A DNA stretch of 64,000 nucleotides from Scenedesmus sp. PABB004 (lineage: Eukaryota), in assembly GCA_014905635.1 (NCBI GenBank), contig JABVCE010000023.1:434001-498000 (forward strand), in the 5' to 3' direction. Position numbers and translations under genes: made by a program. The notes under the pieces were generated by a model, which was not told where the DNA came from, did no database searches, and worked only from the letters and a program-made list of their open reading frames with translations. Within the stretch, counting starts at the first letter, position 1, and every line of letters starts with the position of its first letter. Shown here piece by piece: positions 22,970-62,595 of this stretch.

Positions 22970-25900
22970 TCAGCGCAGCAGCGGGTGGCGCTGCTGGCCC
23001 TCCGCCGCGCGCGCCGCCGCCGCCTCCTCGGGCGTGACCTTCTTCCGAGCAAACGGGTTGGGCGCGGGCCGCGGCGCCGTCAGCGCCGCCGCGAGCGACG
23101 CGGCGTCGGGCTTGCGCTTTGCGCCCGCCGCCGGCGCGCCGCGCGCCGCCAGGTGCGCGGGCGCGCCGCCGCGGTGCGCCTCGCCGCTGCCCTCCGCGGC
23201 GGCGGGCGCCTGGGGCGGGCGGGGGTGGGGCATGGAGACCTCCACGTCGCCGCCGCCCCCCCGCCCGCGCGCCCCTGGTCGGGCGGCCGCGCGCCGTCGG
23301 CGCCGCCGCCCGGCGCCGCAGCGCTGTCGGCGGGCTCCGCCTCCCACGCGCCGTGCGCCGCTGCGGCGGCCTCGCGCGCCGCGGCGGCCGCGGCGGCCGC
23401 CTCGGCCTCGAGCGCGAGGCGGGCTGACAGGTAGTCGCTCACACGCCCGGCCAGCCCGACCAGGCGGTGGTGGTTGGCCAGCTTCAGCACGCCTGCGCAG
23501 CGCGCCCCGGCGTCCGCGGCGCGCGGGGTGAGCGGGGTGAGCGGGGTGGGCGGCGGCGGCCGCGGCAGCCGGCCGGCCCGCCGCGGCGCGCGCGGGCAAA
23601 GCCCCCCCCCCTGCCCCCTCCCCCCCGCGCGGGTCCCGCGGCAGCGGCCCGCGCGCACCCTCCACGCTCTTGGTGAGGTGCAGGCCGCCGACGAGCTCCA
23701 GCGCGCGCGCGGGGCGCCCCGCCTTGGCGTAGGCGTTGAACAGCGTCACCGCCGCGCTGTCCTCGGCCACCTCGGCGCGCCGCACCTCCTCGCCCCACGC
23801 CTCGCGCCCGCCCGGCGCGGCGTCGGCCGCGGCGCGCAGCGCGTCGCCGCGCCGCACCGCGTCGGCGTGGCGCGCCTCGAGCTCGGCCGCCGCCGCCGCG
23901 CCGTCGGCGGGCGCGGCGGGCGGCCGCAGCGGCACGTCGGCGTGCAGCGGCGCGCCGTTTGGCAGCGGGAAGGGCGCGCGCGCGCTGCCCGCGACCGCGA
24001 CGAGGCGGGCGGCGTCGAGGAAGACGGGCCACAGGTCCTCTGCGCCCGCGCCCGCCCGTGCGCCCGCGCGGTCCAGGACCTGCACCCACGCGCCGCCCCA
24101 CGCGGGGCTGCGCACGCGCAGCACGCCGGCGCTGTCGAGCGCGCCCAGCAGCCCCTCCGCGCTGAAGCCGAGCCACGCCAGCGACGCGCCGCGCGACAGC
24201 ACGACGCGCCCGCCGTGCAGCGCGTCGCACGCCTGCACGTCGTACACCTGCGCGGCGCGTGTGTGTGTGTGTGTGGGGGGGGTGGGGGTGGGGGGAGGGG
24301 TCAGCGGGAGGGGGGTCAAAGGAGGGGTCAAGGCGGGGGGGGGGGGGTCCGAGGGCGTCGGCGGCAGGGTCAGCGGCGCCGGCGGGCCCCACCGACCGGC
24401 CCCCCCCCCCCCCGGTGGCCGCTGCTGAGCCGGCGGCGCACCGTGTAGGCGAGCTGTTGTGTGCCGCACGGCTGCGGCGGGCCCTCCGCCCACGCCACGG
24501 CGAGCAGGTTGGCCGTCGCCGCCGCCAGCAGGCCGGGCGCCTCGTGCTCGTGCTCGGGGTCTGCGGCCAGCGCCCCGCCGCGGCGCGCGCAGGCTCGGCG
24601 CGAGCGCAGCAGCGAGGCCGCGGCGGCCGCCCGCCGCGCGCGCGTGCCCCCGCGTGCCCGTGCCCACAGGCACACAGGCACGCACCCGGCATGACCGCGG
24701 CAATGACCGGCCCCGGCAGCGACAGCACCGCCAGCTGCCGCCCCGCCAGGCTGTACAGGCGCAGCAGCTGCGCCGTCGTGCCGACCGCCACGCACGACGC
24801 GCCTGCGCGGTGCGCGCGGTGTGCGGTAGGTCGGCGCGGTGTGCGGCAGGTCGGCGCGGAGCGCGGGCGGGCGGCGGAGCGCGGGCGGGCGGCGCGCGCG
24901 GCCCGGCGGCGCGCGCGGCCCGGCGGCGCGCGCGGCCCGGCGGCGCGGGCGGCCCGGCGGCGCGCGCGGCCCGGCGGCGCGGGCGGCCCGGCGGCGCGCG
25001 CGGCCCGGCGACGCGGGCGGCCCGGCGGCGCGCGCGGCCCGGCGGCGCGGGCGGCCCGGCGGCGCTGCCTCACCCCACCTCCCCCTCCCTCCCTCCCTGG
25101 CTCACCCGCGGCCACCACAATCGCGTCCTCGCCGTCCGGCATCGCCGCCGCCCAGTCGCTGCCGTCCGCCCACGAGTCAAACGAGCGGAACACCTGAGGG
25201 TGTGGGTGGGTGTGTGGGTGTGGGTGAGGGGGGGGGGGGGCCTGGTCGGCACCGTCGGCGCGGGCGGCGCGCCGGCGCCGCCAGCTGGCCGGGGGTCGGC
25301 CCCTCTCCCCGCACCAGCATGGACCCCGTCTCCGCGCCGTCGCCGGGGCTGACGTACGCCGCGCCGCGCGGGCCCAGCGCCGCCGCGGTCGCGCCGTAGT
25401 GGTCGGCGTACGGCGGCACGCGCCCCGGCCAGCGGCTGGGCACGCGGAACCGCACCTGCGCCGCGGCAGGCGCGCGCGCGCGCGGGCGCTGAGCGGCGCG
25501 CTGGAGCGGCGCGCGGCGCGGGGCGCGGCGCGGCGGGGCGCGCGGCGCGGCGTGTGCCAGCGCGTGCCGCGCCTCGCAGGTGTGGTGGTCCAGGTCGTCG
25601 AGCCGCGTCTGCACGATCGCGCCCGCGCGGTTGTACGCCAGGAAGCGGGCCCCGTGCGCGGCGGCCGCAAACGGCGTGCGCCCGGGCGCGATGGCGCCCT
25701 GCACCGCCGGCGCGGGCGGCGCCGGCGCCGGCGCGGCAGCGGCGGCGGCGGGCGCGGCCGCGGCCGCGGGCGCCTTGCCGCCCGCGGCGCGGCCCGCGGC
25801 GTCGAGTCGGTCCGCGAGGCGCGCGGGGCGGGCGGCGGGGCTGTCGCCCGCGGACGCGCTGCCGCCTGCGCGCGCCGCGGCGGCCGCGGGGGCGGGGCTG

Positions 25901-31622: not shown

Positions 31623-34600
31623 ATGATGGAGCAGCAGCACGAGCGGCGGACGCGCCGCGCGGGCACGTCCGCGGCCAGCCACACGTAACCCGGGGGCGCC
31701 TCTGGGGGTGGCAGCGCTCTGTGTGTGGGTGTGGGTGTGTGCCGGCCGACCCCCGCGCCGCCGCCGCCCGCCCGCAGGCGGATCGCGCGCCGAGCGCGCG
31801 GCAGCGCGGCGGCGGCGCGGGGCCTGGCGGGCTCGGCGGCGCTCGTGCGCGCGCGCCTGCGCCCGCACCCGCTGCTGGCGGGCGTGCGGGGCCTGCCGGG
31901 ACGGCTCGCAGTGCGGCTGTGGGTCGGCGGTGCGCCGCGCGGCCGCGCAGGAGCGGCGGAGCTCATGGACGATGCGACCAGCGGCCCTGCGCCGCCCGGC
32001 ACGCGCCGCGTGCGCCGACCGGGCGCGCTGGCGGGCGCAGCGAGCGCGCCGCGCGCCCGCAGCGACGGCGGAGGAGGCGGCGGTGGCGGCGTCGCGGGCG
32101 CCGGCGACGACGACGACGGGAGCCAGCCGGCGCCAGCGGCGTCCTGCGGCAGCAGCGGCGACGCCGGCAGCGACGACCGCCGGCCGCGCAAGCGCGCTGC
32201 ACCGAGCAGCAGCGACTGCGGCAGCGGCGGTGGGGCCAAGCGCGCAGCACCGAGCAGCAGCGACTGCAGCGGCGGCATCGATGCACCTGCTGCCAGCGGC
32301 GGCAACGCCGGCGCGGCCGGCGCCGAGGCCGGCCAGCCGGCGGGCGCGGCGGCGCAGCAGCAGCCGGTGGCGCAGCAGCCAGCGCAGCAGCAGGCGGCGC
32401 AGCAGCAGCCGCCACAGCTGGCAGCTGCGGACGGTGGCCCGGTGCCCTGGGCTGAGCTGCCTGAGAAGATGGCGCGCGCTCGCGCAGGTGCGGCGCAGCT
32501 CGCGCACGAGCAGCTGATGGCCCTGCTGGCGCCGCCGCAGCCGCCGCCCCCGGAGCTCCTGCAGCCGAGGCACGGCTCATTCAAGTGCGGGGCGCTGCGG
32601 CAGCGCGCGGCTTTCCTCCAGCGCCGGCGCGCGGCTGCGGCGGCAGCGGCAGCGGAGGCGGCCCCGCCGGCTGAGGCGGTGGTGGAGCCACGCACGTGGC
32701 CCTGGCAGCGCGCAGCGCACCAGCAGGAGCTGGCGGCAGCAGCGCCGCCGTCGCCGCCGGCTGAGCCGGGCAGCCCTGCGGCCGCGGCGCAGCACAGCTG
32801 GGGCAGCGCCAGCCCCTCCCGCCTGTCCGAGCCGCCCGCACACCACGATGCCGCAGGCTACTGGGCGGCGCAGCACGTGGTGCCCGCCACGCCGCTGACG
32901 ACGCCGTGCCCTGCGCTGAACGCGGCCGCGGCGCCGACGGGCGGTCAGAGGCCGGAGCAGGAGACGCCGCTGGCGGGGCTGTGCTGGCAGCGCCCGGAGG
33001 GCAGCGCCGCGGCCGCCGCCGGCAGCGGTGGCCGCGAGCTGCCTGCAGGGCCGGAGCCAGCAGACGAGCAGCCTGAGCCAGCGCGCTCCATGCCAGTGGC
33101 AGCTGAGCAGGCCGGGCGGGAGGGCTGCCGGCAGCGGTCAGGCGGCAGCACGCCAGTGGCCGCGGCGCCCGGGGGCGACGCTGAGGCGCGCGCGTCGCCG
33201 CGGGCCAGCCAGGGCCCGCGTGCGCTGCCCGACGACGCGTGGGCCTCGCTGCCGAGCCGGCTGGTGCTGAGCCCGAACGAGGCAGAGTTCATGGCCCTGG
33301 TGGAGGAGGAGCACGCGGCGCGGCTGCACAGCTGGGTGGAGCCGCTCGTGCGCTCCGCGGCGGCAGGCGACGCGGACGCGGTCGCCCAGCTCGCGCTGGT
33401 CGGCCAGCTCGCGTTTGACCCGCGGCCGCTGGACGCGGACGCGCTCGCCGTCGCGCTCTCGCGCGGCGCGGACGGGCAGCGCTGCGTGGCGGCGCTCGTG
33501 TGCGCCGCGTGGGGGTCGCCGCACGCCGAGGACGCGGCGCGCCTCGCGCGCGCTGCGTGGGAGGCGGGGGCGCTGCCGGAGGGCGCGTGGGAGCTGCTGC
33601 GCGTGGGCGTGGGCGCGGAGCAGTTCAGGTACCGCGGCTGCGCAGCGGTGGGTGACTACCTGCTGCTGCTGCTGCTGGACTGCGTGGCCGCCACCAGCGC
33701 CGCCGCGCCGCACCTGCTGGAGCCGCCGCCTGGCGGCAGCCTCGAGCGCGAGGGCAGGCGGGCGCTGGCGGCGCTCACCTCTGCGCGGCGGGAGGCTGTG
33801 GAGCGCGTGGCCGCGGCACACCTGGGGGGCCTGCCGTTCCTGAGCCACCCAGCCAGCGAGGAGCAGGAGGCGACGCTGCAGGCGCTGCTGGTGCTGGCGC
33901 TGGCAGCGCCGGACGACGCGGAGCCGCGCACGTGGCCCTGGCAGCGCGCAGCGCACCAGCAGGAGCTGGCAGCAGCAGCGCCGCCGTCGCCGCCGTCGCC
34001 GCCGGCTGAGCCGGGCAGCCCTGCGGCCGCGGCGCAGCACAGCTGGGGCAGCGCCAGCCCCTCCCGCCTGTCCGAGCCGCCCGCACACCACGATGCCGCA
34101 GGCTACTGGGCGGCGCAGCACGTGGTGCCCGCCACGCCGCTGACGACGCCGTGCCCTGCGCTGAACGCGGCCGCGGCGCCGACGGGCGGTCAGAGGCCGG
34201 AGCAGGAGACGCCGCTGGCGGGGCTGTGCTGGCAGCGCCCGGAGGGCAGCGCCGCGGCCGCCGCCGGCAGCGGTGGCCGCGAGCTGCCTGCAGGGCCGGA
34301 GCCAGCAGACGAGCAGCCTGAGCCAGCGCGCTCCATGCCAGTGGCAGCTGAGCAGGCCGGGCGGGAGGGCTGCCGGCAGCGGTCAGGCGGCAGCACGCCA
34401 GTGGCCGCGGCGCCCGGGGGCGACGCTGAGGCGCGCGCGTCGCCGCGGGCCAGCCAGGGCCCGCGTGCGCTGCCCGACGACGCGTGGGCCTCGCTGCCGA
34501 GCCGGCTGGTGCTGAGCCCGAACGAGGCAGAGTTCATGGCCCTGGTGGAGGAGGAGCACGCGGCGCGGCTGCACAGCTGGGTGGAGCCGCTCGTGCGCTC

Positions 34601-36998
34601 CGCGGCGGCAGGCGACGCGGACGCGGTCGCCCAGCTCGCGCTGGTCGGCCAGCTCGCGTTTGACCCGCGGCCGCTGGACGCGGACGCGCTCGCCGTCGCG
34701 CTCTCGCGCGGCGCGGACGGGCAGCGCTGCGTGGCGGCGCTCGTGTGCGCCGCGTGGGGGTCGCCGCACGCCGAGGACGCGGCGCGCCTCGCGCGCGCTG
34801 CGTGGGAGGCGGGGGCGCTGCCGGAGGGCGCGTGGGAGCTGCTGCGCGTGGGCGTGGGCGCGGAGCAGTTCAGGTACCGCGGCTGCGCAGCGGTGGGTGA
34901 CTACCTGCTGCTGCTGCTGCTGGACTGCGTGGCCGCCACCAGCGCCGCCGCGCCGCACCTGCTGGAGCCGCCGCCTGGCGGCAGCCTCGAGCGCGAGGGC
35001 AGGCGGGCGCTGGCGGCGCTCACCTCTGCGCGGCGGGAGGCTGTGGAGCGCGTGGCCGCGGCACACCTGGGGGGCCTGCCGTTCCTGAGCCACCCAGCCA
35101 GCGAGGAGCAGGAGGCGACGCTGCAGGCGCTGCTGGTGCTGGCGCTGGCAGCGCCGGACGACGCGGAGCCGCGCACGTGGCCCTGGCAGCGCGCAGCGCA
35201 CCAGCAGGAGCTGGCAGCAGCAGCGCCGCCGTCGCCGCCGTCGCCGCCGGCTGAGCCGGGCAGCCCTGCGGCCGCGGCGCAGCACAGCTGGGGCAGCGCC
35301 AGCCCCTCCCGCCTGTCCGAGCCGCCCGCACACCACGATGCCGCAGGCTACTGGGCGGCGCAGCACGTGGTGCCCGCCACGCCGCTGACGACGCCGTGCC
35401 CTGCGCTGAACGCGGCCGCGGCGCCGACGGGCGGTCAGAGGCCGGAGCAGGAGACGCCGCTGGCGGGGCTGTGCTGGCAGCGCCCGGAGGGCAGCGCCGC
35501 GGCCGCCGCCGGCAGCGGTGGCCGCGAGCTGCCTGCAGGGCCGGAGCCAGCAGACGAGCAGCCTGAGCCAGCGCGCTCCATGCCAGTGGCAGCTGAGCAG
35601 GCCGGGCGGGAGGGCTGCCGGCAGCGGTCAGGCGGCAGCACGCCAGTGGCCGCGGCGCCCGGGGGCGACGCTGAGGCGCGCGCGTCGCCGCGGGCCAGCC
35701 AGGGCCCGCGTGCGCTGCCCGACGACGCGTGGGCCTCGCTGCCGAGCCGGCTGGTGCTGAGCCCGAACGAGGCAGAGTTCATGGCCCTGGTGGAGGAGGA
35801 GCACGCGGCGCGGCTGCACAGCTGGGTGGAGCCGCTCGTGCGCTCCGCGGCGGCAGGCGACGCGGACGCGGTCGCCCAGCTCGCGCTGGTCGGCCAGCTC
35901 GCGTTTGACCCGCGGCCGCTGGACGCGGACGCGCTCGCCGTCGCGCTCTCGCGCGGCGCGGACGGGCAGCGCTGCGTGGCGGCGCTCGTGTGCGCCGCGT
36001 GGGGGTCGCCGCACGCCGAGGACGCGGCGCGCCTCGCGCGCGCTGCGTGGGAGGCGGGGGCGCTGCCGGAGGGCGCGTGGGAGCTGCTGCGCGTGGGCGT
36101 GGGCGCGGAGCAGTTCAGGTACCGCGGCTGCGCAGCGGTGGGTGACTACCTGCTGCTGCTGCTGCTGGACTGCGTGGCCGCCACCAGCGCCGCCGCGCCG
36201 CACCTGCTGGAGCCGCCGCCTGGCGGCAGCCTCGAGCGCGAGGGCAGGCGGGCGCTGGCGGCGCTCACCTCTGCGCGGCGGGAGGCTGTGGAGCGCGTGG
36301 CCGCGGCACACCTGGGGGGCCTGCCGTTCCTGAGCCACCCAGCCAGCGAGGAGCAGGAGGCGACGCTGCAGGCGCTGCTGGTGCTGGCGCTGGCAGCGCC
36401 GGACGAGGCGGAGCCGCGCACGTGGCCCTGGCAGCGCGCAGTGGGCCAGCAGGAGCTGGCGGCAGCAGCGGTTGGGGCAGCAGCAGAACAGCTGCAGCAG
36501 CAGCAGCAGCAGCAGCGACAGCAGGATGATGAGCAGCAGGGCCCAGCGACGGCGTCGCCGGCAGGTGAGAAGAAGAGGCGCCGCCACAAGCGCCGCCGCA
36601 CGCAGGCGGGGGCGACGGAGGACGCTGCCAGCACGTCCGCGGCCGGGCGGCCGGCCGTGCTGTTGGCGCGCGCCGACCAGCAGGGCAACGCGGTGCTGGC
36701 GCACCGCGGCACGGTCGCGGTGCAGCCCGGCGAGACGCCGCCGTGCGCCGCAGCGTCGCCGCCCGGCCCGCCCGCGGCGGCGGCGGTTGCGGCGCCGCAC
36801 GGCGCGGTCGACTATCGCGCGCTGGCGGCTGCATACGTTGCGGCAAAGCGGGCCAGGCGCGAGGCGGCCGAGCAGCAGCCGCGCAAGCGCCGCCCGCCGC
36901 AGCGCGAGGTGACCGGCGCCGACCAGCAGCCGCGCCCCAAGCCGCTCCGGCGGCCCGCCACTCAGAAGGTGGGGCGGGAGCGCATTGACTGCTTCTGA
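31623..36998 (+). CDS. Large hypothetical protein with three tandem ~415-aa internal copies and NLS-like tracts
   Basis: Uninterrupted ORF 31725-36998. A plausible exon 1 at 31623-31684 splices in phase to 31778; an alternative start lies at 31966. No recognisable domain. Confidence 0.6.
32685..36441 (+). repeat. Tandem triplication; units start at 32685, 33921 and 35166 (1236, 1245 and 1245 bp), with a partial fourth start at 36411
   Basis: Identical ORF translations recur at +1245 offsets (32945/34190/35435). Each unit begins EPRTWPWQRA. Confidence 0.97.
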
Positions 36999-47306: not shown

Positions 47307-49925
47307 TCACCGGCGGGCATAGGCGGCGCTGCGCGCGCTCTGGCGCTGGCTGGCGGCGGCGGCCATGCGGCTGCGCATGTCCTCCACGCTGCCGCTGGTG
47401 GACTGGCCGATGTTGCCCAGAATCTCGGCCATCTGGCCGCGGCTGAAGTCGGCGAGCGTGAGCACCTTGGCCAGGCTGCTCACGAGCGAGTCCTTGGTCG
47501 CGTTGCGCATGGGGATGCCCTTCTTGCGCGCCAGCTCGGACAGGGTGTCGACCTTGAACACGGCCAGGTCAGACTCAAACACGGCGCCAGAGCCGCCCGA
47601 CGCGCCGCCGGCGCTGCTGCCGTTGCTGCGCGAGTAGCTGGCCCAGCGGTCGCCGCTCGCGGCGGCGGGGGCGGGGCTGGAGGTGCGCCAGCTGCTGGTG
47701 CTGGCCGCGGGCGCGGCAGAGTAGCCACCCTTGCCGACGGCGGAGGCCAGGTTCTTGCGCAGGCTGTCGACGTCGCGAGCGAGGGGAGAGCCCAGCTTGT
47801 TGGCCAGGTCCACGAGCATGCCTGCGGCGGGAGGGAGAAGGGCGGCGGGGCAGGCGGGCGTCAGCGCATGCCGGGCGGCCGTCGCGCAGCACGCCAGCGC
47901 GCGCAGCGGGCCAGGGCGCGCAGCGGGCCAGCGCGCGCAGCGCGCCAGAGCGGGGCCCAGCCGGCCGGGCCGACGCACCGCGGGTGAGGTCGTTCAGCGA
48001 CACGCCCTTGGCCACCAGGGCGCTGATGACGCCGTCCTTGGTGGGCTCGCGGGGCAGCTGGGCGCCGGTCTTGGACACCAGGTCGCGCAGGTCGTCGATG
48101 CGCAGCACGGTCAGGTCGGCGGCGCTCAGCTTGCTGCCGCTGGCGTTGTGGCTGCCGCTGCGGCGCCAGGAGGCAGACTTGGTCGCGCCCGCAGAGTAGG
48201 ACGACCAGCGGTCGCCGCCGGCCGGCGCGGCCACGGCCGGGGTGGAGCGCCAGCTCGAGGCCGAGGCGGACGAGCCACCGCTGCCGCCGACCACGCTGGA
48301 CAGGTTGCGGCGCAGGCCCTCGACGTCCTTGGCCAGGGGCGCGCCCAGCTTGGTGCAGAGGTCCACGAGCATGCCTGGAGGCGGGGCAGGCAGGCGGGGC
48401 AGCGCGTCAGCACGCGTGCAGGGCCCCCACACGGCAGCGCGCGGCTGGCGCGTGCGCTGGGCGGCGCAGGCGACCTGAGCAGCCCGAGGTCGCGGCGCGC
48501 GGCGCGCCCGGCAGCAGCCGGCGGGGCGGGCGCTCACCGCGGGTGAGGTCGTTGACCGACACGCCCTTGGTCAGCAGGGCGCTGATGACACTGTCGCGGG
48601 TGGGCTCGCGGGGCAGCTGGGCGCCGGTCTTGGACACCAGGTCGCGCAGGTCGTCGATGCGCAGCGCGGACAGGTCGCCGCTGCCGAGCTTGGCGCCGGG
48701 GCCGCCCGCGCCCGCCGCGGCGCGGCCGGTGCCGTTGGAGGAGGCGCCGGAGCTGTAGCTCGCGAAGCGGTCGGTGGTCGCGGGCGCGGCCGGGGTGGAG
48801 CGCCAGCTCGAGGGCGCGCTGCCGCCCGCGGCGGCGCTGGTCGCGCCGAGCTCGGCGAGCTGGCCCTTGGTGAGGTCGGACATCGACACGCCGGCCTGGA
48901 TCAGCGCGCGGGTCAGGCTGTCGCGCGTCGCGTTGCGGCCGGCCGTCACGCCGCGCTTGCCCGCAATCTCCACGAGGTCGACGATCTTGAACTTGGCGAG
49001 GTCGGACGCCGAGAGCGAGCCGCCGGCGCCGCCCGCCGCGGCGCGGGGCGCCGACGCGGAGGCGGCGCCGGTGTAGTTGGAGAAGCGGCCGCCCGAGGCG
49101 GGCGCGGAGGAGGAGCCGTAGCTGGAGCCGCCCGCGGCGCCGCCGTTGGCCTTGAGCTCGGCGAGCTGGCCCTTCGTGAGGTCGGACGCGGACACGCCGG
49201 CCTGGACGAGCGCGCGGGTCAGGCTGTCGCGCGTCGCGTTCCGGCCGGCCGACACGCCGCGCTTGCCCGCAATCTCCACGAGGTCGACGATCTTGAACGC
49301 CGCCAGGTCGGAGGCCGACAGCGTCTGCGCGGCGGGCGGCGGCGGGCGGCGGCGCGCGGGGGTGAGGCGCGCGCGCGGGCGGCGCGGGCGCGGCGCGGCG
49401 CGCGGGCAGCGCAGCCCCGCCCGCCGTCCAGGACCGCGCCGTCGGCGCGGCCCGGGGGCGCGGCGCCGTGTGGGCGGGCCGCGGGGCGCGCGCGCGGCGC
49501 AGGCGGGGCTGCCGCCCGAGGCAGCACGGCGCAGGCCGGCGGATACGCCCCGCGCGCGCGCGCCGGCGCCGCGATCGGCGCGTGGCGTGGCGCGGGAGCT
49601 CACCGCGGAGTAGCGCGCCACCACCAGGCCGCGGCTGGGGGTCGCCGCGGTGCGGGCGCTGCGGGCGGGCGGGCGACGCGGGGGCGCGTGAGGCCAAGCT
49701 CAACTACGGCAATTGCGGCGCCCGCGCGGCCCCCGCGGGCGCGCGGCGCCTGTAATTATCGGCGCCTCGCACCTGCCAGCGAGGCCCGCGCCAGCGCGCT
49801 TCTGCATCTGCGACGCGCGGGCGCGGCGCGTGAGCGGTGGATCGACGCAGCCCCCGGCGCGGGCGTGCGGCGCGCGATGGATGGCGCGCGCGGGCGCGCT
49901 GGCGGGCACTAACCAGGGCAGCCAT
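47307..49925 (-). CDS. Predicted chloroplast-targeted repeat protein (about 599 aa): five SAP/HeH-like modules with Trp-motif disordered linkers
   Basis: Exons 49925-49914, 49807-49773, 49658-49604, 49324-48538, 48374-47979 and 47821-47307 are all GT-AG and in phase (1800 nt). The N-terminus MAALMQKRAGAGLAGSARTAATPSRGLVVAR resembles a transit peptide. Confidence 0.82.
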
Positions 49926-50837
49926 TGGGGGCGGCGCGGGGCGACTGCTGCGCGCTCGGGAGGTGGGGTGGTGCGGCAGCGGCGCGGGGCGACTGCGCTG
50001 GGGGGCGGGGGGAGCGGCAGTGGCTCGGGCTGGGCGGCGCGAGCGAGTTTTGGGGGCGCCGCAAGGCGCATGGTAGCCTTTTAGGTAGGAGGGCCTTGTG
50101 CCTCAGGGTTCAACCCGATGAACTCGGCCCACGAGCCGCCCCAAATGCGCGCGACGTGTCGGGCGTTGCGTTCCGATCGCGCGCGAGCTCACAGCGCCGG
50201 CCGCGAGGGCCGGGGGCGCCGGGCGGGCGGCGGGATGGCAGCCATCGCGCGGCATCGGCGATCGCCCGGGAGCCGTGCCGGGCCGCCCTGCGCCCCGGAC
50301 CGCCGCGCTGAACTCTGGCACGGCGCCGCGCGGCGCGGCGGCCCGCGGGGAGGCCGCCTGGACGGCCGCCGCGCTCTGGACGCGCGGCCTGCCGCGTGTG
50401 CTGCGCGCGCCGCCGCCGACTCTTCGCCGGCTGGTCTGGGGCACGAGGAGCCCGTTACCCGTAATAGGAGCGCCAAAAAAGCCGCGCTCGCGGCCCGCCG
50501 CCGCATGCGCACGCGGCCGCTGCAGAGACGGTCCCCCGCTGCCCCCTGTTGCCCCGCCCGCGCCGCGCGCGCGGGTCCGGTGGTGCCTGCCGCCGCGCCC
50601 AAAAACTCCGCACCACGCCACGCAAATCGCCGCCAGCAGCCCCCGGGGCAGGGAGCGCGCGCGCCCCATCTTCATTCAGCTATGAATGAGCTCACGACCG
50701 GCGCGGACGCGCGCGGCGGCACGCGATGGGTGCCGCCGCGCCCCGGCCCGACAGTGCAGTGCAGTGCCGCCGCGCGCCAGCGGACGGGGGCTGGGGCCTG
50801 GCGGCCCGGGCGCCCCCGCCGCAGCGCCCGGGGGCGC

Positions 50838-53800
50838 TCACCAGCGCGAAGAGCTGGCGGCGCCGCGCGCGCTCTGGCGCTGGCTGGCGGCGGCGGCCAT
50901 GCGGCTGCGCATGTCCTCCACGCTGCCGCTGGTGGACTGGCCGATGTTGCCCAGAATCTCGGCCATCTGGCCGCGGCTGAAGTCGGCGAGCGTGAGCACC
51001 TTGGCCAGGCTGCTCACGAGCGAGTCCTTGGTCGCGTTGCGCATGGGGATGCCCTTCTTGCGCGCCAGCTCGGACAGGGTGTCGACCTTGAACACGGCCA
51101 GGTCAGACTCAAACACGGCGCCAGAGCCGCCCGACGCGCCGCCGGCGCTGCTGCCGCCGCTGCGCGAGTAGCTGGCCCAGCGGTCGCCGCTCGCGGCGGC
51201 GGCGGCGGGGGCGGGGCTGGAGGTGCGCCAGCTGCTGGTGCTGGCCGCGGGCGCGGCAGAGTAGCCGCCCTTGCCGACGGCGGAGGCCAGGTTCTTGCGC
51301 AGGCTGTCGACGTCGTTGGCCATCGGCGCGCCCAGCTTGTTGGCCAGCGTCACCAGCATGCCTGCGGCGGGAGGGAGAAGGGCGGCGGGGCAGGCGGGGC
51401 GTCAGCCCATGCCTGCGGCCGTCGCGCAGCGGGCCAGGGCGCGCAGCGCGCCAGAGCGGGGCCCAGCCGGCCGGGCCGACGCACCGCGGGTGAGGTCGTT
51501 CAGCGACGCGCCCTTGGCCACCAGGGCGCTGATGACGCCGTCCTTGGTGGGCTCGCGGGGCAGCGTGGCGCCGGTCTTGGACGCGAGGCTGCGCAGGTCG
51601 TCGATGGGCAGCGCAGCCAGGTCGCCCGCGCTCAGCTTGCTGCCGCTGGCGTTGTGGCTGCCGCTGCGGCGCCAGGAGGCAGACTTGGTCGCGCCCGCAG
51701 AGTAGGAGGCCCAGCGGTCGCCGCCGGCCGGCGCGGCCGCGGCCGGGGTGGAGCGCCAGCTCGCGGGCGGCAACTGGCTGGACGCCGGCGCGGGCGTCGG
51801 CGTCGCGCGCCAGGTGGCCGTGGCGGAGCCGGAGCCGCCGATGAGGGCGGCCAGCTCGGCGCGCGCGGCGTCGATGTCGCGCGAGAGCCCGGCCTTGCCA
51901 AGCTTGGTGCCCAGGTCCACGAGCTGGCCCTTGGTGAGGTCGGCCAGGCTCACGCCCGCCTTCACCAGCGCGGACGTGAGGCTGTCGCGCGTCGCGTTGC
52001 GGCCGGCCGTCACGCCGCGCTTGCCCGCAATCTCCACGAGGTCGGCGATCTTGAACGCCGCCAGGTCGCCCGCGCTGAGCAGGGCGCCGCCGGCGCCGCC
52101 CGCCGCCGCGGCGGGCGCGCTGCCGGCGCTGCTGCCGCGGCCGACGTTGGCCCAGCGGTCGCCGCCGCTGCTCGCGGCGGGCGCCGCGGGCGCGGGCGCG
52201 GGCGCCGAGTAGGACGCGCCGCCGGCCTTGAGCTCGGCGAGCTGGCCCTTGGTGAGGTCGGACGCGGACACGCCGGCCTTGAGCAGCGCGGACGTGAGGC
52301 TGTCGCGCGTCGCGTTGCGGCCGGCCGTCACGCCGCGCTTGCCCGCGATCTCCACGAGGTCAGCGATCTTGAACTTGGCGAGGTCGGACGCCGAGAGCGA
52401 GCCGCCGGCGCCGCCGGCCGCCGGGGCGGGGGCGGGCGCGGCCGCGCCGCGGCCGACGTTGGCCCAGCGGTCGCCGCCGGCCGCGGGCGCGGGCGCGGGC
52501 GCCGGCGCGGGCGCGCGCGGCGCCGGCGCGGGCGGCGCGGGCGCGGGCGTGTCGCGCCAGGTCGCGCGCGGGGGGTCGCGCTTGAGGTTGAGCCCCTTGG
52601 CGCCGGCGTAGGCCTCCGGCACGCTGCTGCCGTCGGTGCCGGCGAGCTCCGCGCCCGCGAGGTACGCGTCTGCGAGCTGCACGCGCTTGACGTTGTCCTG
52701 CTCGCCCACGAGCGCGCGGCCGTAGGTCATGAGCACGTCGGTGGTCATGCGGGGCTTCTCAAACTGCACCTTGCCCTCCTTGCTGTTGATGAGGCGCTTG
52801 TTTAGGTTCTCGTGACCGATCGACGCGACAAACTCGCGCACCTGCGCGGGCGCGGGGGCGCGTCAGCGCGCGAGCGCGTCAGCGCGGGCGCGGCGGCGCG
52901 GGCGCGGCGCGGGCGCGGCGCGGCGGCGAGTGCGGGCGCGGCGCGGTCGCGGCGCGGGCAGCGCTGGGCAGCGCTGGGCGGCGCGCGTCGGCGCGCGCCT
53001 TGTCGTCGTAGACGCGCGCGCGCAGGGCGCCGAAAAAGTCGATGCTCTGCCCCGGGAAGGCGTCGACGAGCATCTCGACGTCGCTGCGCGGCAGGCCGTC
53101 CTCCTGCGCGCGCGGCGCAGCGGCGCGGCGGCGCGGCGGCGCGGCGGCGGGGAGGCGGGGGTCGGCGGCGGCGCGACGCTGCGGCGCGACACTGCGGCGC
53201 GCGGCCGCGCGCCCCGCGCCCGCTGCGCGTGGCCCGCGCGCCGCGCCCCGCCGCGCCGCGCGCGCCTGGAAGATGCCCATGCACACGCCGATGCGGTCCT
53301 CGCGCGTGGGGTGCCAGTAGTACTTGTCCATGCGCCCGTCGCGGATGAGGGGGGCGTAGAGCGTGGAGAAGTCGTTGCCTGGGCGGTTGGGGTGAGGGGG
53401 TGAGGGGGTGAGACGGGGGAGGCAGAGAGGCAGAGGGCGGGGGTGGGCGCACGCGGGCGGCGGCGGCGCGCGCGCGGGTGGCGGCGCACGCGGGGGCCGG
53501 CGCGCGGCGCGCGCGCGGCGGCTCTCCACGCGGCGGCGGCTCCCCCCCCCCCCCTGCGCGGCGCGGCGGCCGAGGCGCACCGGTGCAGATGATGGGCACG
53601 CGGGGGATCTCCTCGTTCTTGTACACGCCCGGGAGCTGCACGTTGGTGGGGTTGTCGGCAATGTTCATCAGCGTCGCGTTGACCATCTGGTTGTTGACCT
53701 GCGGGGGTGAGGCGGAGAGGGCGCGGGCGCGCGCGGGCGCGCGGTGTCAGGTCGGGGCGCGCCGCGCGGCGCCGCCGCGCGCGGCCGGCCGCCGCGCCGC

Positions 53801-55224
53801 GCGCGGGCCGCGGCGTGCTGCCTGCCGCGCCGCACCGTGTACTGGGTTGAGAGGCCGAAGCGCCCCGCGCCGGCGTCGAGGTCGTTGATGAAGAGGGCGG
53901 TCATGCGGCCCTTCTTGATCATGTCGCTCGCCTCGCGGTAGCGCTGGCGCAGCAGCTTGGCGGGCTCGCCCGCGTTGCCCGACTCGAGCTCGCCCGCGCT
54001 CATGACGATGGGCGTGATGCCGAGCTTCTTGAACGCGAGCATGCACTGAAACGTCTTGCCCTGCGCGCGCGGGGCCAAGGCGAGAGAGGAGGGGGGGGGG
54101 GGGGGGGGGTGGAGAGGGGGCGGCCCGTCAGCCGCGGCACATACGCGGCGCCGGCGCCGGCGGCGGCGCGCCCGGCGCGCGCTGCACGCGCCCCGCGCGC
54201 GCTGCACGCGCCCCGCCCCGCGCGCCCCGCGCCGCGGCGCCGACCTGTCCCTTGCCGCCCCAGATGCCGAGGATGAGGGGGACCTTGATCTTGGGGAGGT
54301 TCATAAAGTTCTTGGCGATGTGGATGCTCAGCTTGTCCAGGAAGGCGGGGGAGATGTAGAAGCCGTCCTCAATGTTGCCCAGCGTGCGCTGCGCGGTGCT
54401 GATGTAGTCGGTCGAGCTCAGCACCGCGTTCTGCGTGCCAGCCGTCCCGCCCCAGCCCTGGAACAGCTCGTCCACCATGCCGCGCCCGCGCGCGATGTCT
54501 TGCTGCGCGCACGCGCGCCGGCGGCGGCGGCGGCGGCGGCGGCGCGTGGGCGGCGGCGGCGGCGGCGCGGGCGCGCGGGCGCGGCCGCGCGGCGCCGGCG
54601 TCGCCGCACCTGGTCGTCGGAGGTGTCGTTGCCGGCGTCCATGGCGGCCCAGCGGCCCTTGTGGGACTTGCCGCCGGCGTGCGCGACATTGCTCGAGCGC
54701 GGCGCGGCGGCCTGCGCGGCAGCAGCGGCGGGCGCGCACGCGCGTCGGCGGGCCGCCGATCGCCGCCGATCGCCTCGCGCACGTCCCCGCGCGCCCGGAC
54801 GCCAGAGCCCCGGGCGATCGGGGACTCCAGCCCGCCCTGGCGCGCCCTGAGCGGAGCGGCGCCGGATGCCCGGCCGCTGCCGATGCCCGAGGCCCGGCGA
54901 GCCCGCGACCTGGCCCACACACCCCGCACGCACCTTGGCACGCGCGCCGGGGGCCGCGCCGCTCCTGGCACTGCGGGGCAGCAGCAAGGGCGCGGCGTGA
55001 GGCCCGGCGCGGAATTGCGGCGCCTAGCGCGCCCGGGCGATGCGCGCGCGCGGCGCATTCGTGTCGCCGTCCCTCCCCCCGCACCTGGAGCCCAGGCCGG
55101 CCTGCTTCGCCACCTGCGCGCGCGGGGCGGGGCGGGCGAGTGCGTGGACGGGCGCCGTCGCGCCAATTGGGGCTCACCCCAGCCCCGCCAGCGGTCGCCG
55201 AGCACGCACCAGCTGGGAGGCCAT
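50838..55224 (-). CDS. RCA: Rubisco activase with a ~550-aa C-terminal repeat extension (about 960 aa total)
   Basis: Exons 55224-55210, 55113-55085, 54970-54934, 54711-54610, 54502-54245, 54060-53836, 53698-53581, 53378-53266, 53103-52999, 52841-51485 and 51361-50838. Motifs [75 protein letters not shown] and [19 protein letters not shown]. Confidence 0.95.
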
Positions 55225-56117: not shown

Positions 56118-58055
56118 TCAGGGGGCCGCCTTGCACAGCTCCTCCAGCTGGCGCCACACGTCTGGCGGCGCGCCGGCGGGCGCCTGCGGGGCGGCGGTGG
56201 CGGCGGGCGCCCGCGCGCATGAGGGCAGCTTGGCGCGGGCGGGCCGCTCGCGCCCCGCGGCGCCGCACCTTGCTCCCCAGGTCGACCACTATGCTGGCGG
56301 CTCCCCCGATCTCGCAGATGAAGAGATATGTCAGCGCCGTCAGCGCCGTGAGGTGCAGCGCGCCCGCGGGGGTCAGGCCCTCGCAGCAGTCCTGCACCGC
56401 AAGCTGCCGCAGCTCCGTCAGGCGGGCGAACACGGTCTCCGCCTGGGCGTCGCTAATGCAGATGAGGCTGCCATGCCCGTATGCTGCGTCAGCCGGGTAG
56501 ACCACGCGAGCCAGATTCAGGCGTGTCAGGCGCGTCAGTGCCAGCAGCCCCTGCAGGCTCAGCGCCTCGCGCACGCTCACGTCGCTGCCGTACGCCAGCG
56601 TCAGCTCGCACAGCGCGGGGCACGCTGCGGCCAGGCAGTCCACGTCCGCCTGCGCCCCCGCCAGCTCGTCGTCGTCAAAAAAGCGCGACCCAAACGGAAT
56701 GTGCAGGTGCTGCAGGCGCGAAAACACACGGCCGGCAGGGAAGAGGTGCGCGCCCGTGCCGCGGAGCAGATACAAGTCATAATAGCCAGCGTACTCAAAC
56801 CCGGAGACAAAGCTGAGGCTCGTCAGCCGGCCGCTCAGCGCGGCCAGCGGCGCCCACGCGGCCGCAGGCAGCGGCTGCTCGTCGCCCAAGCGCCAGACGG
56901 TCAACTGCTCAAGCTGCGTGCGCGCGCCCACCGCCGCCAGCAGCGCGCCGCCCTGGGCGCCAAGGCCACACTCCAGGTGCCGCAGGCCCCTGCACGCCGT
57001 CAGCGTCGCCGGCGGCAGCTGCATCCCATCCAGCTCCAGCCACGTGAGGCCGGTCGGCAGCTGCGGCACCTGCACGGAGCCAGCCTGCACGCACAGCCCC
57101 AGCTCCGCCAGCGCAGTGAGAGCGCTCACGGGCGCCAGCGCCGCGCCTGCCGCGCTGCCCCCGCCCAGGGCCAGGCACGTGAGCTGCGTCAGGGCGCCGA
57201 CCGCCACGGCCAGGGCTGCCGTCTGCTCGCTGTTGGCGGCGTCACCATCCAGCTCCAGCTCCAGCCGCCGCAGGCGCGTCAGCGCGCCCAGCGACTCCAC
57301 CGCCGGCAGCGGCAGCCCGCACTCCTCCAGCTCCAGGCTGGTCAGCCGGCCCGCCAGCGGCGCCAGCGTGACACCGCCGAGCGTCACCAGGCCCACGCCC
57401 TGCAGGCGCAGCGCCTCCAGCCGCACCAGCACCTTGCAGGGCAGGGCGAGCGTGGCGCGCACCAGCGCCTCCACCTCCAGGCGCGCCACGTGCCCGCCGC
57501 GGGCACCCAGCCACGCCGCCAGGCTGTCGGCTTGGGGCTGCGTCGCCTCCTTCACAACGATGCTGGTCGTGGCAGCCGCGGCCGCGTCGCGCCAGTCGCT
57601 GCACGCCAGCGCGGCGCGAAGGCGGCCGGCGAGCGGCAGCCGCGCCAGCACGCCCGCCAGCAGCTCGCGCGGCAGGCCGCCCTGCACTTCGTTGCTGTCG
57701 TCCGCCTGCGCGTAGGCGCAAACGGCACAGGGCGCGACACGGCGTGTGAGGCCGGGCGCGCGGCGGCCGCGGCAGGGGCGGGCGCAGCGAGCAGCGCGCG
57801 CCGCCGCCGCTGCCGGGCGCGCGCCGCGCGCCGCGCGTGCCGCGGCGGGCCGCGGCAGCGCCAGGGCGGGCGAGCGGGACCGCGCCGGCCGCGAATCACG
57901 CGCGCCTGGCCCGCTCCCGCCCCGCCACAGCGCGCCAGCAGCCGCCCGCTGCTCGTGCGCGCCGAGCGCCCGCCCCCCGCTGCCCAGGCCGCCCCGCTCA
58001 CCGGCGGCGCGCGGGGCCGGTCGGGCGGCGCCTGGGCGGTGCGGGGGCTCGCCAT
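56118..58055 (-). CDS. F-box/leucine-rich-repeat protein, paralogue 3
   Basis: Exons about 58055-58002, 57705-56269 and 56183-56118. Same F-box-like and LRR sequence; last exon APAGAPPDVWRQLEELCKAAP*. Confidence 0.8.
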
Positions 58056-60741: not shown

Positions 60742-62595
60742 ATGGCGGGGGGAGGCGCGGGCGCGGAGGCCGCCGAGCAGCCGCAGCAGCGGAGCTGGTG
60801 AGCCGCGGCGCGCGCGGCAGCGGCGGCGGCCACGGAGCCCCACGCGGGCCCGCGGCGCGCACCGTTTTGCTGCCGCCCGGCTGGCGCGTGCGAGTGACAT
60901 TGAGCTGCCCGTGCCCACCGCCTGCCGCCGCAGTGGTGCCGGCGCGGGCGGGGGCTCCGCCGCCTGGCGGCCTGTGGTCGCGGCGCTGGAGCGCAATCAG
61001 TTGGCCACGGAGGTGCTGGTCTCCGGCCTGGGCGTGTCGTGCGGCACAACCCTCACAAACCCCATCGGTGACCGCGCTGGCTGCCCGCTGGCGCGGCAGC
61101 GCGCTGGCCGCGCGCTGGCGGCTGCGCCGCGCCCCGCCCGCGCCCACCGCCCGCCGGCGGGCCTGTCGCGCAGACGTCGTCAAGACGCGCCTGCAGCTGC
61201 GCCCCGGCAACGGCCCCACGCCCGGCATGGTGTGCGCGGCCCCGCTGCCGCGCTGCTGGCCAGCGGCTGCTCGCAGCGGTGGCGCGCTGACGCGGCGCCG
61301 CTCCCCCGCTGGCAGGTGTCCACGGGGCTTGAGATCGCGCGGGCGGAGGGCATGCTGGCACTGTGGCGCGGCTGGGTGCCCGCGGTCGCGCGCGGCATGG
61401 CCTACGGCGGTGCGGGCGGCCCGCACGCGAGCGCACGGGCGCATGGCGCGGCGCGGCGGTGCGCGGCGTGGCGCGTGCCCACCCCCGCCCCCGCGCCCCC
61501 GCGCCCCCGCGCCCCCGCCCCCGCGCCCCCGCGCCAGGGCTGCGCCTGGGGCTGTACAACCCGCTCAAGGCTGCGCTCGGCGACGCGCTGCGCGGCGACG
61601 GCGGCAGCGGCAGCAGCGACAGCAGCGGCAGCAGCGGCAGCAGCGGCGGCGGCGACAGCAGCGGCAGCAGCGGCAGCAGCGGCGGCGGCGACAGCAGCGG
61701 CAGCAGCACCAGCAGCGGCAGCGGCAGCGGCACCAGCAGCGGCGGCAGCAGCGGTGGCGGCAGCGCGGGGGCCAAGTGGCGGAGCGACCTGGCCGTCAAG
61801 CTGCTGGCGGGCGTGCTCAGCGGCTCGGCGGCAGCGGCGCTGCTCAGCCCCACCGAGCTCATCAAGGTGCGGGCCCCCGGCCGAGAGGCGGGGGGGGGGA
61901 GACCCCGCGCGCGCCCGCGCCCGCGCCCCCGCGCCACACCCGCGCGCGCCGCACCCGCGCGCACGCCACGGCCGCGGTCAGGTGCGGCTGCAGGCGCCCG
62001 GCAGCACGCTCACGTCGAGCAGCCAGGCGATCGCCGCGGTGGTCGCGTCCGACGGCGTGGGGGGGCTGTGGAAGGGGGGCACGCCGGGCGTGGTGCGCGC
62101 GGCGGTGCTGACCGCGGCGCAGTGCGTGACGTACGACGAGGCGAAGCGCCGCGTGCTGGCGGCCACGGGCTGGGCCGACGGCGCCGCGGCGCACCTCGCG
62201 ACCGCGCTCATCACGGGCCTCGTCTCCACGACCGCGACAAACCCCGTGGACGTCATCAAGACGCACATGTTTGTCGGTGCGCACCCACGGCGCCGCAGCG
62301 CCGCGCCACGCCCTGCGCACCCCCCCCCCCCGCGCGCGCGCGCGCGCGCGCTGCCGGCAGCCCGTTGCCCACCCCCGCCGCCGCCCCGCCGCCCCGTCGC
62401 CGCCCCGCCGCCGCAGGCGGGCGCGCTCACAGCGGGCCGCTCGCGTGCGCGGCGTCGCTGTACGCCGCGCAGGGCGGCGCCGCGTTCTGGCGCGGCTGGT
62501 CGGCCAACTACGCGCGCCTGGGGCCGCAGACGGTGGTGACGTTCCTGGTCGTGGAGCAGCTGCGCGCGGTGATGGGCTGGCCGCCGCTGGGCTGA
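60742..62595 (+). CDS. Mitochondrial carrier family protein, UCP/dicarboxylate-oxoglutarate (ucpB-like) type
   Basis: TNPIDVVKTRLQ, YGGLRLGLYNPLK, PTELIKVRLQ, RAAVLTAAQCVTYDEAK, NPVDVIKT and FWRGWSANYARLGPQTVVTF; TGA at 62593-62595. Exon 1 at 60742 splices in phase to 60934. Confidence 0.85.

Follow-up and report, generated by a model that had tools for sequence, protein, structure and literature searches.

Pyrenoids account for a large share of global CO2 fixation. The Rubisco linkers of pyrenoids arose independently in different lineages, and the three characterised in green algae as far as is known, EPYC1, CsLinker and SUPA1, have independent origins; core-chlorophyte linkers carry five or six stickers, flexible spacers of ~40 residues and an isoelectric point (pI) >8, and are unconserved between lineages. 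Here we describe a gene found in a 64,000-nucleotide (nt) stretch of Scenedesmus sp. PABB004 DNA (contig JABVCE010000023.1, positions 434,001 to 498,000; hereafter the window), which neighbours the gene for Rubisco activase (RCA) and encodes five copies of a helical module that also forms the C-terminal tail of that activase. We read its product, the module-only protein, as a lineage-specific pyrenoid scaffold whose layout would correspond to that of CcmM and the cyanobacterial Rca-SSUL fusion rather than to that of EPYC1, and we give this reading a probability of roughly 45%.

Several described proteins bear on this comparison. The Rubisco-binding motif of Chlamydomonas is [D/N]W[R/K]XX[L/I/V/A], often placed at the exact C-terminus (PMC7673724), and the Rubisco-binding element of the linker is reused in starch tethers, namely SAGA1/2 in Chlamydomonas and PMST in Chlorella; SAGA1 contains a CBM20 starch-binding domain, and PMST combines CBM20 with six copies of the linker motif. 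Linker candidates are recognised by FLIPPer through at least three repeats, a pI >8, structured elements 20–120 residues apart and a largely disordered chain. In cyanobacteria, CcmM is made in two forms, M58, which joins a further domain to three SSUL modules, and M35, which has the modules alone and comes from an internal start, and the C-terminal SSUL domain of cyanobacterial Rca packages this enzyme with Rubisco. Chlamydomonas Rca is described as having no such tail and entering the pyrenoid via its N-domain. Our literature survey, with subscription journals and supplements (including the FLIPPer candidate lists) outside its scope, found no Scenedesmus, Tetradesmus or Sphaeropleales linker and no tailed algal activase.

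The module-only gene occupies 47307–49925 on the minus strand, to which all coordinates below refer unless stated otherwise. Its six exons (49925–49914, 49807–49773, 49658–49604, 49324–48538, 48374–47979 and 47821–47307) splice to 1800 nt in frame, that is, 599 codons plus TGA, and all five introns are GT-AG. This agrees with the first-pass annotation, made from the letters alone, which had placed a six-exon gene downstream of RCA on the same strand; the RCA stop codon lies 912 nt before the ATG. The product (599 aa, pI 10.4) aligns end to end with the Tetradesmus obliquus protein OEZ85_014454 at 68% identity (residues 1–598 vs 1–616), and the alignment spans the exon 3/4 junction (...VVARYSA|TLSASDL). 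Only the 12-nt exon 1 is uncertain, some orthologues starting at the Met of exon 2.

Exons 1–3 (49604–49925) encode a 34-aa presequence (MAAL|MQKRAGAGLAGS|ARTAATPSRGLVVARYSA, bars marking the exon boundaries) that is a putative chloroplast transit peptide. It contains 5 K/R, 0 D/E and 10 Ala residues and runs directly up to module 1, as in the orthologues, which share ...RG.(V/M)VV(A/T)R... at this place. A composition rich in K/R and Ala and free of acidic residues is typical of green-algal transit peptides. The N-terminus thus looks as transit-peptide-like as first noted, and from its composition we infer that the protein is probably plastid-targeted.

A hidden Markov model (HMM) of the module finds five copies in the module-only protein (residues 36–98, 138–196, 248–331, 379–463 and 509–591) and four in the RCA tail; across the six frames of the window it matches nowhere else, and no RbcS motif occurs in the window either. 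A Pfam search of the three large exons of the gene (563 of the 599 residues) revealed no catalytic domain, and Pfam returned no membrane segment and no additional domain for the protein, so that the view of it as activase-tail modules free of an enzyme part is upheld. A full module is ~85 aa long, and the beads range from 60 to 85 aa. Modules 1 (49133–49321; 74.7 bits) and 2 (48839–49015; 72.6 bits) are assigned by the module tree to the short form of class A, composed of a first helix-loop-helix unit and a truncated second one, and the two group with each other. Modules 3 (48271–48685; HMM pieces 48685–48533 and 48375–48271) and 4 (47718–48129, likewise matched in pieces) belong to class B, and module 5 (47334–47582; 110 bits), with its C-terminal helix, to class C. 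Module 4 is 86% identical to RCA module 3, and module 5 shares 85 of 86 residues with RCA module 4. In each of the three class B modules of the two genes, a phase-1 intron interrupts one and the same codon, LTRG|M (48537–48375, 47978–47822 and, in RCA, 51484–51362), precisely where one helix-loop-helix half gives way to the other; no intron occurs in class A or class C modules.

The four spacers between the modules measure 39, 51, 47 and 45 aa, consist of Ala, Ser, Gly and Pro to 66–82%, and are net positive in every case. Three of them carry Trp-Arg motifs. Spacer 2 (48686–48838; 51 aa, 73% Ala/Ser/Gly/Pro, net +3) contains SSWRSTPA...TDRFASYS, spacer 3 (48130–48270; 47 aa, net +5) SSWRSTPA and GDRWSSYS, with W381, R382 and R383 invariant, and spacer 4 (47583–47717; 45 aa) SSWRTSSP and GDRWASYS, as seen from composition, motif search and orthologue alignment. 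In 12 of 12 stand-alone orthologues (the 14 stand-alone matches minus P0012, which is partial, and P0016, whose model is frameshifted), three spacer sites show Trp-Arg without exception, as part of SSWRSTPAP...GDR(F/W)xSYS and ASWRRSGS. Across the 14 stand-alone proteins, each Trp sits in SWRxxP/S, DRWxxYS, SWRRSG/SWRSGG or a terminal SRW; over 19 family proteins, the Trp contexts are SWR[ST]xP, DRWxxYS and SWRRSGS, with ...SRW as the C-terminus of some.

AlphaFold2 predicts for a single module (the intron-free one at 52079–51822 of the RCA tail, aligned with 15 relatives) a strand-free fold in which five helices form two tandem helix-extended-loop-helix units, with a mean predicted local distance difference test score (pLDDT) of 82.2 and a predicted template-modelling score (pTM) of 0.63. 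In the model of the full-length T. obliquus orthologue, five folded blocks reach pLDDT 80–90, the spacers and the presequence stay below 50, and the pTM of 0.24 shows no packing between the modules. Likenesses to described folds are remote. Foldseek returned nothing for the module model at E <=0.001, and a sequence search of the PDB with the family profile gave no match at E <=1. A VIA-align comparison with 48,161 chains, yielding Z values that are common for helical models, placed 6kc5_B, an unrelated chain, on top (Z 5.7), followed by SAP domains (1zrj, 1v66, 2do1, 1h1j) and Rho (1a62) at Z 4.2–4.6 and LEM domains at Z 3.6; the SAP, Rho and LEM matches each cover one half of the module. In Pfam, SAP (PF02037) scores 13.8 bits against a gathering threshold of 23.9, and Rho_N (PF07498; threshold 24.9) scores 18.6 bits in exon 4 of the module-only gene, 24.7 bits in RCA exon 10 and 15.6 bits in the T. 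obliquus orthologue. The ESM Atlas offered no usable match for the orthologue, and its module scores of <=0.82, Rho_N and SAP clusters among them, are leads only. The module is thus, as modelled, a remote, tandem SAP/Rho_N-like unit that falls below the thresholds of the curated families examined.

The neighbouring gene (50838–55224, 11 exons, 960 aa) encodes an AAA+ core with a presequence before it and a tail of ~520 aa after it, and shares 69% identity over its full length with the T. obliquus RCA, OEZ85_014455. Exon 10 matches PF21228 (Pfam, E 2.1e-9), and the T. obliquus protein has both PF00004 and PF21228; by these signatures the gene is a green-type RCA with an AAA+ core and a helical subdomain. 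Two of its ten introns, at 53265–53264 and 52998–52997, need GC donors (GCGCGC), no GT donor fitting there; they keep the protein continuous at ...CMGIFQ|EDGL... and ...YDDK|VREF..., as checked against T. obliquus RCA. Since the T. obliquus proteins align end to end, both gene models are validated, small 5′ exons included. The tail (50838–52523) comprises four modules (52397–52227, 52079–51822, 51635–51485 plus 51361–51258, and 51116–50868, located with the module HMM) and WR/DRW spacers, and ends in ...SSRW. The 912-nt spacer between the genes (49926–50837, from RCA stop codon to module-only ATG) should comprise the RCA 3′ untranslated region together with the promoter and 5′ untranslated region of the module-only gene.

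The arrangement is conserved among relatives. OEZ85_014454 and OEZ85_014455 bear consecutive locus tags on one 5.8-Mb contig of T. obliquus, and both forms occur in other relatives as well, in line with the first-pass annotation, which had proposed a two-gene system of a free scaffold and a tagged activase. Among proteins of 460–2000 aa, 25 matches were found, of which 14 are stand-alone (471–617 aa) and 11 are RCAs, or C-terminal pieces of RCA, with the tail; another 33 matches among proteins of 144–459 aa are mostly fragments, P0097 being a complete three-module form. Stand-alone full-length orthologues with a presequence of their own are present in several relatives at 54–68% identity. Where the source is named, it is T. 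obliquus, Scenedesmus sp. NREL 46B-D3 or Hariotina reticulata, the last of which also has a tailed RCA. The number and type of modules vary by species, with three to five in relatives: RCA carries four in the window and five in T. obliquus (1107 aa), and the T. obliquus free protein has a long class A second module in place of the short class A copy in the window protein.

A profile built from the 12 orthologues and run against 1.84 billion representative proteins retrieved 63 at E <=0.001, with bacterial proteins of Rho_N repeats and one match that is probably false at the lowest scores. Because so few matches came from so large a set, the family is, at the level of sequence, small and lineage-restricted, as the earlier claim of lineage specificity held; we count this restriction in favour of a linker, known linkers being likewise restricted. 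The UniRef name of the orthologue is "SAP domain-containing protein". A scan of metagenome contigs with the family profile found no relative, and one with P0022 found a single locus, the RCA gene of a lower-GC alga (L001). There, at 4079–4915, RCA seems to end soon after ...VKRVQLAD..., with no module tail in that exon. As this activase is seemingly tailless, the tail would not be universal among algal RCAs; on synteny the locus is uninformative.

One relative extends the module beyond these two forms. P0026 (2531 aa, encoded on a single 8-kb transcript contig) consists of an N-terminal CBM20 domain (E 2.5e-15), an acidic stretch and 17 modules of the same family, and has no RCA part. Some of its modules pass the threshold of the Pfam family SAP_new25 (PF18953; 42.5 vs 26.3 bits). 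By analogy with the known tethers, P0026 is a candidate for a tether between starch and matrix. The module is all that it shares with the other proteins and is therefore a better candidate for the common sticker than Trp-Arg; the invariant Trp-Arg motifs would then represent a second element beside the module sticker.

The 3′ parts of the two neighbouring genes are nearly the same sequence. The tract 48263–47322 of the module-only gene matches 51769–50856 of RCA at 91.9% identity over 950 columns, stops 15 nt short of the module-only stop codon, and includes a 300-nt stretch (47322–47621 and 50856–51155) that is 100% identical. The shared LTRG|M intron is 97.5% identical apart from one indel, and its flanking exons 93.7–96.1%; the direct repeat with its intron is thus present as first described. 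An intron as alike as the exons indicates that the likeness comes from recent duplication or gene conversion and not from selection on the protein alone. The 3′ flanks of the two genes are 63% identical, a value taken, with no shuffled control behind it, to be background in 80% GC DNA; the likeness of the tract itself goes far beyond chance.

That the genes themselves are old follows from the modules. Class C modules are identical at 85 of 86 positions within each genome (the window pair and the T. obliquus pair) and at 60 of 86 between the species; class A modules reach 89–91% identity within a genome vs 77–86% between species. In a tree of 48 modules from 11 selected family proteins (the remaining members being left out), class C is supported at 100/100, class B at 95/94 and class A at 85/84, and paralogous modules pair within genomes with support of 100/96, 100/95, 93/81, 91/90 and 90/91. 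Since paralogous modules are alike within a genome and diverged between genomes, gene conversion is implied, and the pattern indicates that the module-only gene and RCA are old genes that have been homogenised again and again, the 3′ end more than the rest.

The same evidence does not bear out a further claim of the first-pass annotation, that a copy of the free protein had been captured by the activase. The order of classes is A, A, B, (B), C in both, so the free protein is colinear with the whole RCA tail and not a shuffled set of modules. Ongoing conversion has, on this reading of the alignments, blurred the history of the pair, and what remains hints at the reverse order, in which a tandem copy of the tailed RCA lost its AAA+ exons and became the module-only gene. 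Introns 1 to 3 agree in phase between the two genes (0, 2, 0), and the presequences align with a local score of 44, reached by 111 of 5000 shuffles. At the DNA level, the 5′ exons match at 62–65%, an unconvincing value for sequence of 80% GC.

The mechanism proposed next builds on what was observed of the genes (their structure, conservation and module architecture), on the predicted fold and disorder, on the fusions and on concerted evolution. The module-only protein would be imported into the chloroplast and serve in the pyrenoid as a strongly basic, multivalent scaffold, with a mature chain of ~565 aa in which five helical beads sit on flexible, positively charged spacers of 39–51 aa. The beads, perhaps together with the Trp-Arg motifs, would be the stickers, binding Rubisco holoenzymes and linking them to one another in the pyrenoid matrix. 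The tailed RCA, with four beads per subunit, would be drawn into the same condensate and, as a hexamer, add valency to it, serving as co-scaffold or client. The related CBM20 protein with its 17 beads may tie the matrix to the starch sheath, and gene conversion between the adjacent genes may keep the stickers of scaffold and RCA alike. We favour a pyrenoid scaffold because the module recurs in a five-valent basic protein, in RCA, which repairs Rubisco, and behind CBM20, as in known linkers. The protein would behave like a member of the functional class of pyrenoid linkers or scaffolds, with a CcmM-like layout: it has five modules and a pI of 10.4, against FLIPPer's three repeats and pI of 8, and its spacers of 39–51 aa lie within the range of 20–120 residues, although by the start-to-start distance of the modules (102–131 aa) two of the four intervals slightly exceed 120.

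Several observations weigh against this reading. A regular-expression search for [D/N]W[R/K]XX[L/I/V/A] matched none of 19 family proteins, both window proteins included. The FLIPPer demand for a largely disordered chain is contradicted by the five folded blocks of the orthologue model, where 376 of 617 residues (~61%) have pLDDT >=70. Support for a starch tether comes from one sequence, P0026, which is devoid of the Trp-Arg spacer motifs and to which a word-index search of proteins of 1392–4430 aa found no relative but itself. The named sources of the family are Scenedesmaceae only, and the SAP/Rho_N/LEM fold class is chiefly associated with DNA or RNA binding. The fusion to RCA suits an activase-centred role equally well, and plastid import, pyrenoid location and Rubisco binding are candidate properties of the module-only protein. 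The pyrenoid linker or scaffold put forward in the first-pass annotation therefore gains independent support from P0026, while its Rubisco binding and location stay putative; the label "EPYC1-analogous" given there holds for function only, the motif being absent and the chain resembling beads on a string. As to membership in described groups, an EPYC1-type protein was rejected on the absence of the motif in 19 of 19 proteins and the ~61% folded chain, and an SSUL protein on the all-helical module model.

Other explanations have to be set against a Rubisco-binding scaffold. It is unlikely that the modules serve the activase, with one another, the tail of RCA or its AAA+ ring as binding partners in place of Rubisco; in that case the free protein would bridge or cap hexamers of tailed RCA and tune their oligomeric state, activity or clustering, and Rubisco would be contacted via the Trp-Arg motifs or by RCA itself. 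Adjacent genes with modules kept nearly identical by gene conversion are what mutual recognition would require, although adjacency alone also yields gene conversion. With Trp-Arg as a second conserved element, two binding functions are plausible, the SSUL modules of CcmM also make contacts within the scaffold, and the tailless entry of Chlamydomonas Rca through its N-domain makes a tail dispensable for targeting. However, P0026, which joins 17 modules to a starch-binding domain and contains no RCA part, is hard to explain in this way, and the full-length model, with its lack of module packing, argues weakly in the same direction. P0026, the RCA fusion and the basic repeats do point to the pyrenoid without naming the partner, and the modules might instead bind traversing thylakoid tubules, the starch-matrix interface or another matrix protein; the module-only protein would then be a client or adaptor, and a different protein would be the true linker of the lineage. 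We consider this quite unlikely: five-fold valency with spacers of ~40–50 aa is the reported layout of a cross-linker, and the protein contains no membrane segment or other domain that Pfam would recognise.

The SAP-type DNA-binding protein that the first-pass annotation named as its alternative survives as a remote likeness of fold, with the SAP and Rho_N scores of the window modules below the Pfam thresholds. In this explanation, which we regard as very unlikely, the modules would bind DNA or RNA in the plastid and organise nucleoids or mRNA near the pyrenoid, with the tail tethering RCA there. The near-threshold Rho_N score of RCA exon 10 (24.7 vs 24.9 bits), the sub-threshold SAP match and the passage of P0026 modules over the SAP_new25 threshold favour it, and so do the SAP and Rho N-terminal domains that form the best structural likenesses below the top row, the bacterial Rho_N repeat proteins at the weak end of the profile matches, the pI of 10.4 and the UniRef name. 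Yet the fusions to RCA and CBM20 point to Rubisco and the starch sheath and not to DNA; the fold also makes protein contacts, LEM-BAF and MANF SAP-BiP appearing in the same structural list; all structural scores lie in the range common for helical models; and a single-lineage family would be unusual for a nucleoid protein. Finally, the 92–100% identity of the 3′ 940 nt, intron included, to the RCA tail might suggest a functionless by-product of a recent partial duplication. This is extremely improbable, given a frame open across six exons, intact orthologues with their own presequences in several relatives (54–68% identity) and a within-genome identity that recurs independently in T. obliquus and fits conversion between old genes.

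Codon use and metatranscriptome contigs give weak hints only of expression. The frequency of C at third positions is 0.65 in the module-only gene and 0.60 in the RCA core, compared with 0.35 in an unrelated long open reading frame that may not be a true one. Freshwater metatranscriptome contigs cover parts of 47333–48886, mostly at 88–95% likeness; they come from relatives, and the module-only gene and the RCA tail are indistinguishable in them. One such contig joins 48373 to 47978, as spliced LTRG|M on repeated modules would. Three DNA metagenome runs (two freshwater, one sludge) contain contigs of <=250 nt without differences from the window, for example over 47331–47582, which would place the window's alga or a very close relative in them at low depth; among sequencing runs, none held more than 13% of the sampled words.

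The remainder of the window, with a G+C content of ~75–84% throughout and eukaryotic, intron-rich genes, offered some side observations. Upstream of RCA, 56120–56800 (minus strand) resembles by eye the end of a leucine-rich-repeat-type gene (...LTRLNLARV..., ...LTALTALTYL...) that finishes near 56120. An open frame of 1769 aa on the plus strand (31689–36998) contains a tandem repeat with a period of 1245 nt (415 aa), whose copies at 32743–33042, 33988–34287 and 35233–35532 are 100% identical over the 300 nt compared; it has only weak, sub-threshold ARM-like Pfam matches. A 17-nt tandem repeat present 12 times (GCGCGGCCCGGCGGCGC) lies at 24861–25065, and a (CGGCAGCAG)n array of ~17 copies at 61599–61761.

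The candidate scaffold is specific and conserved, with a putative function, and the gene pair is a clear example of concerted evolution matching scaffold and client. If our reading is correct, Scenedesmaceae, including widely used biotechnology strains, would gain a linker candidate. It would also provide the first pyrenoid sticker, as far as is known, that is a folded domain, the first eukaryotic activase bearing the modules of the scaffold itself, and a compact, portable targeting domain for pyrenoid engineering in crops. We further speculate, and regard as possible and on balance doubtful, that the Scenedesmus lineage has a pyrenoid code of its own, in which a folded tandem helix-loop-helix sticker is shared by the linker, by RCA (24–30 beads per hexamer) and by a CBM20 tether, the linker having been born from the activase gene and kept matched to it by conversion; on that view green algae would have a fourth independent linker system.

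Compared with known systems, the module resembles SAP (PF02037), Rho_N (PF07498) and LEM domains in that each of its halves is predicted as a two-helix unit, and its Pfam scores are borderline. It differs from SAP and Rho_N in that the window modules stay below the gathering scores and form a fixed tandem of two motifs, and from all three in being repeated in putative plastid proteins fused to RCA or CBM20. With CsLinker, PMST, PMTT and RHOP of Chlorella and SUPA1 of Ulva, the module-only protein shares the number of stickers, spacers of ~40 residues and a pI >8, and P0026 follows the same logic of CBM20 plus stickers as PMST. The stickers of those proteins, in contrast, are single short helices or peptides that fold upon binding, and no activase fusion is reported there in the openly available portions of the sources; the profile search, with its 63 matches, turned up no CsLinker- or SUPA1-type sequence likeness, no direct comparison having been made. 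With the EPYC1 network (SAGA1/2, RBMP1/2) it has in common a basic, repetitive and lineage-restricted character, an element that recurs elsewhere, including in a starch-binding protein, and Trp-Arg at the centre of a conserved short motif, whereas its repeats are folded domains of 60–85 aa and not short helices in a disordered chain.

The closest likeness is to CcmM and Rca-SSUL of beta-cyanobacterial carboxysomes, where folded modules are likewise set on flexible linkers, a modules-only form exists beside an enzyme-type form, and an activase bears the scaffold module at its C-terminus. Differences are evident at several levels: SSUL resembles the Rubisco small subunit, whereas the module described here is predicted to be all-helical; M35 is made from an internal start of a single gene, and the two forms here from two adjacent genes; and RCA here carries four to five modules per subunit in a eukaryotic pyrenoid, with putative binding of Rubisco. 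The likeness is therefore one of design and not of descent, and, if the module-only protein is indeed a pyrenoid scaffold, the CcmM/Rca-SSUL design would have been re-invented in a eukaryote, the carboxysome plan having arisen again in an alga.

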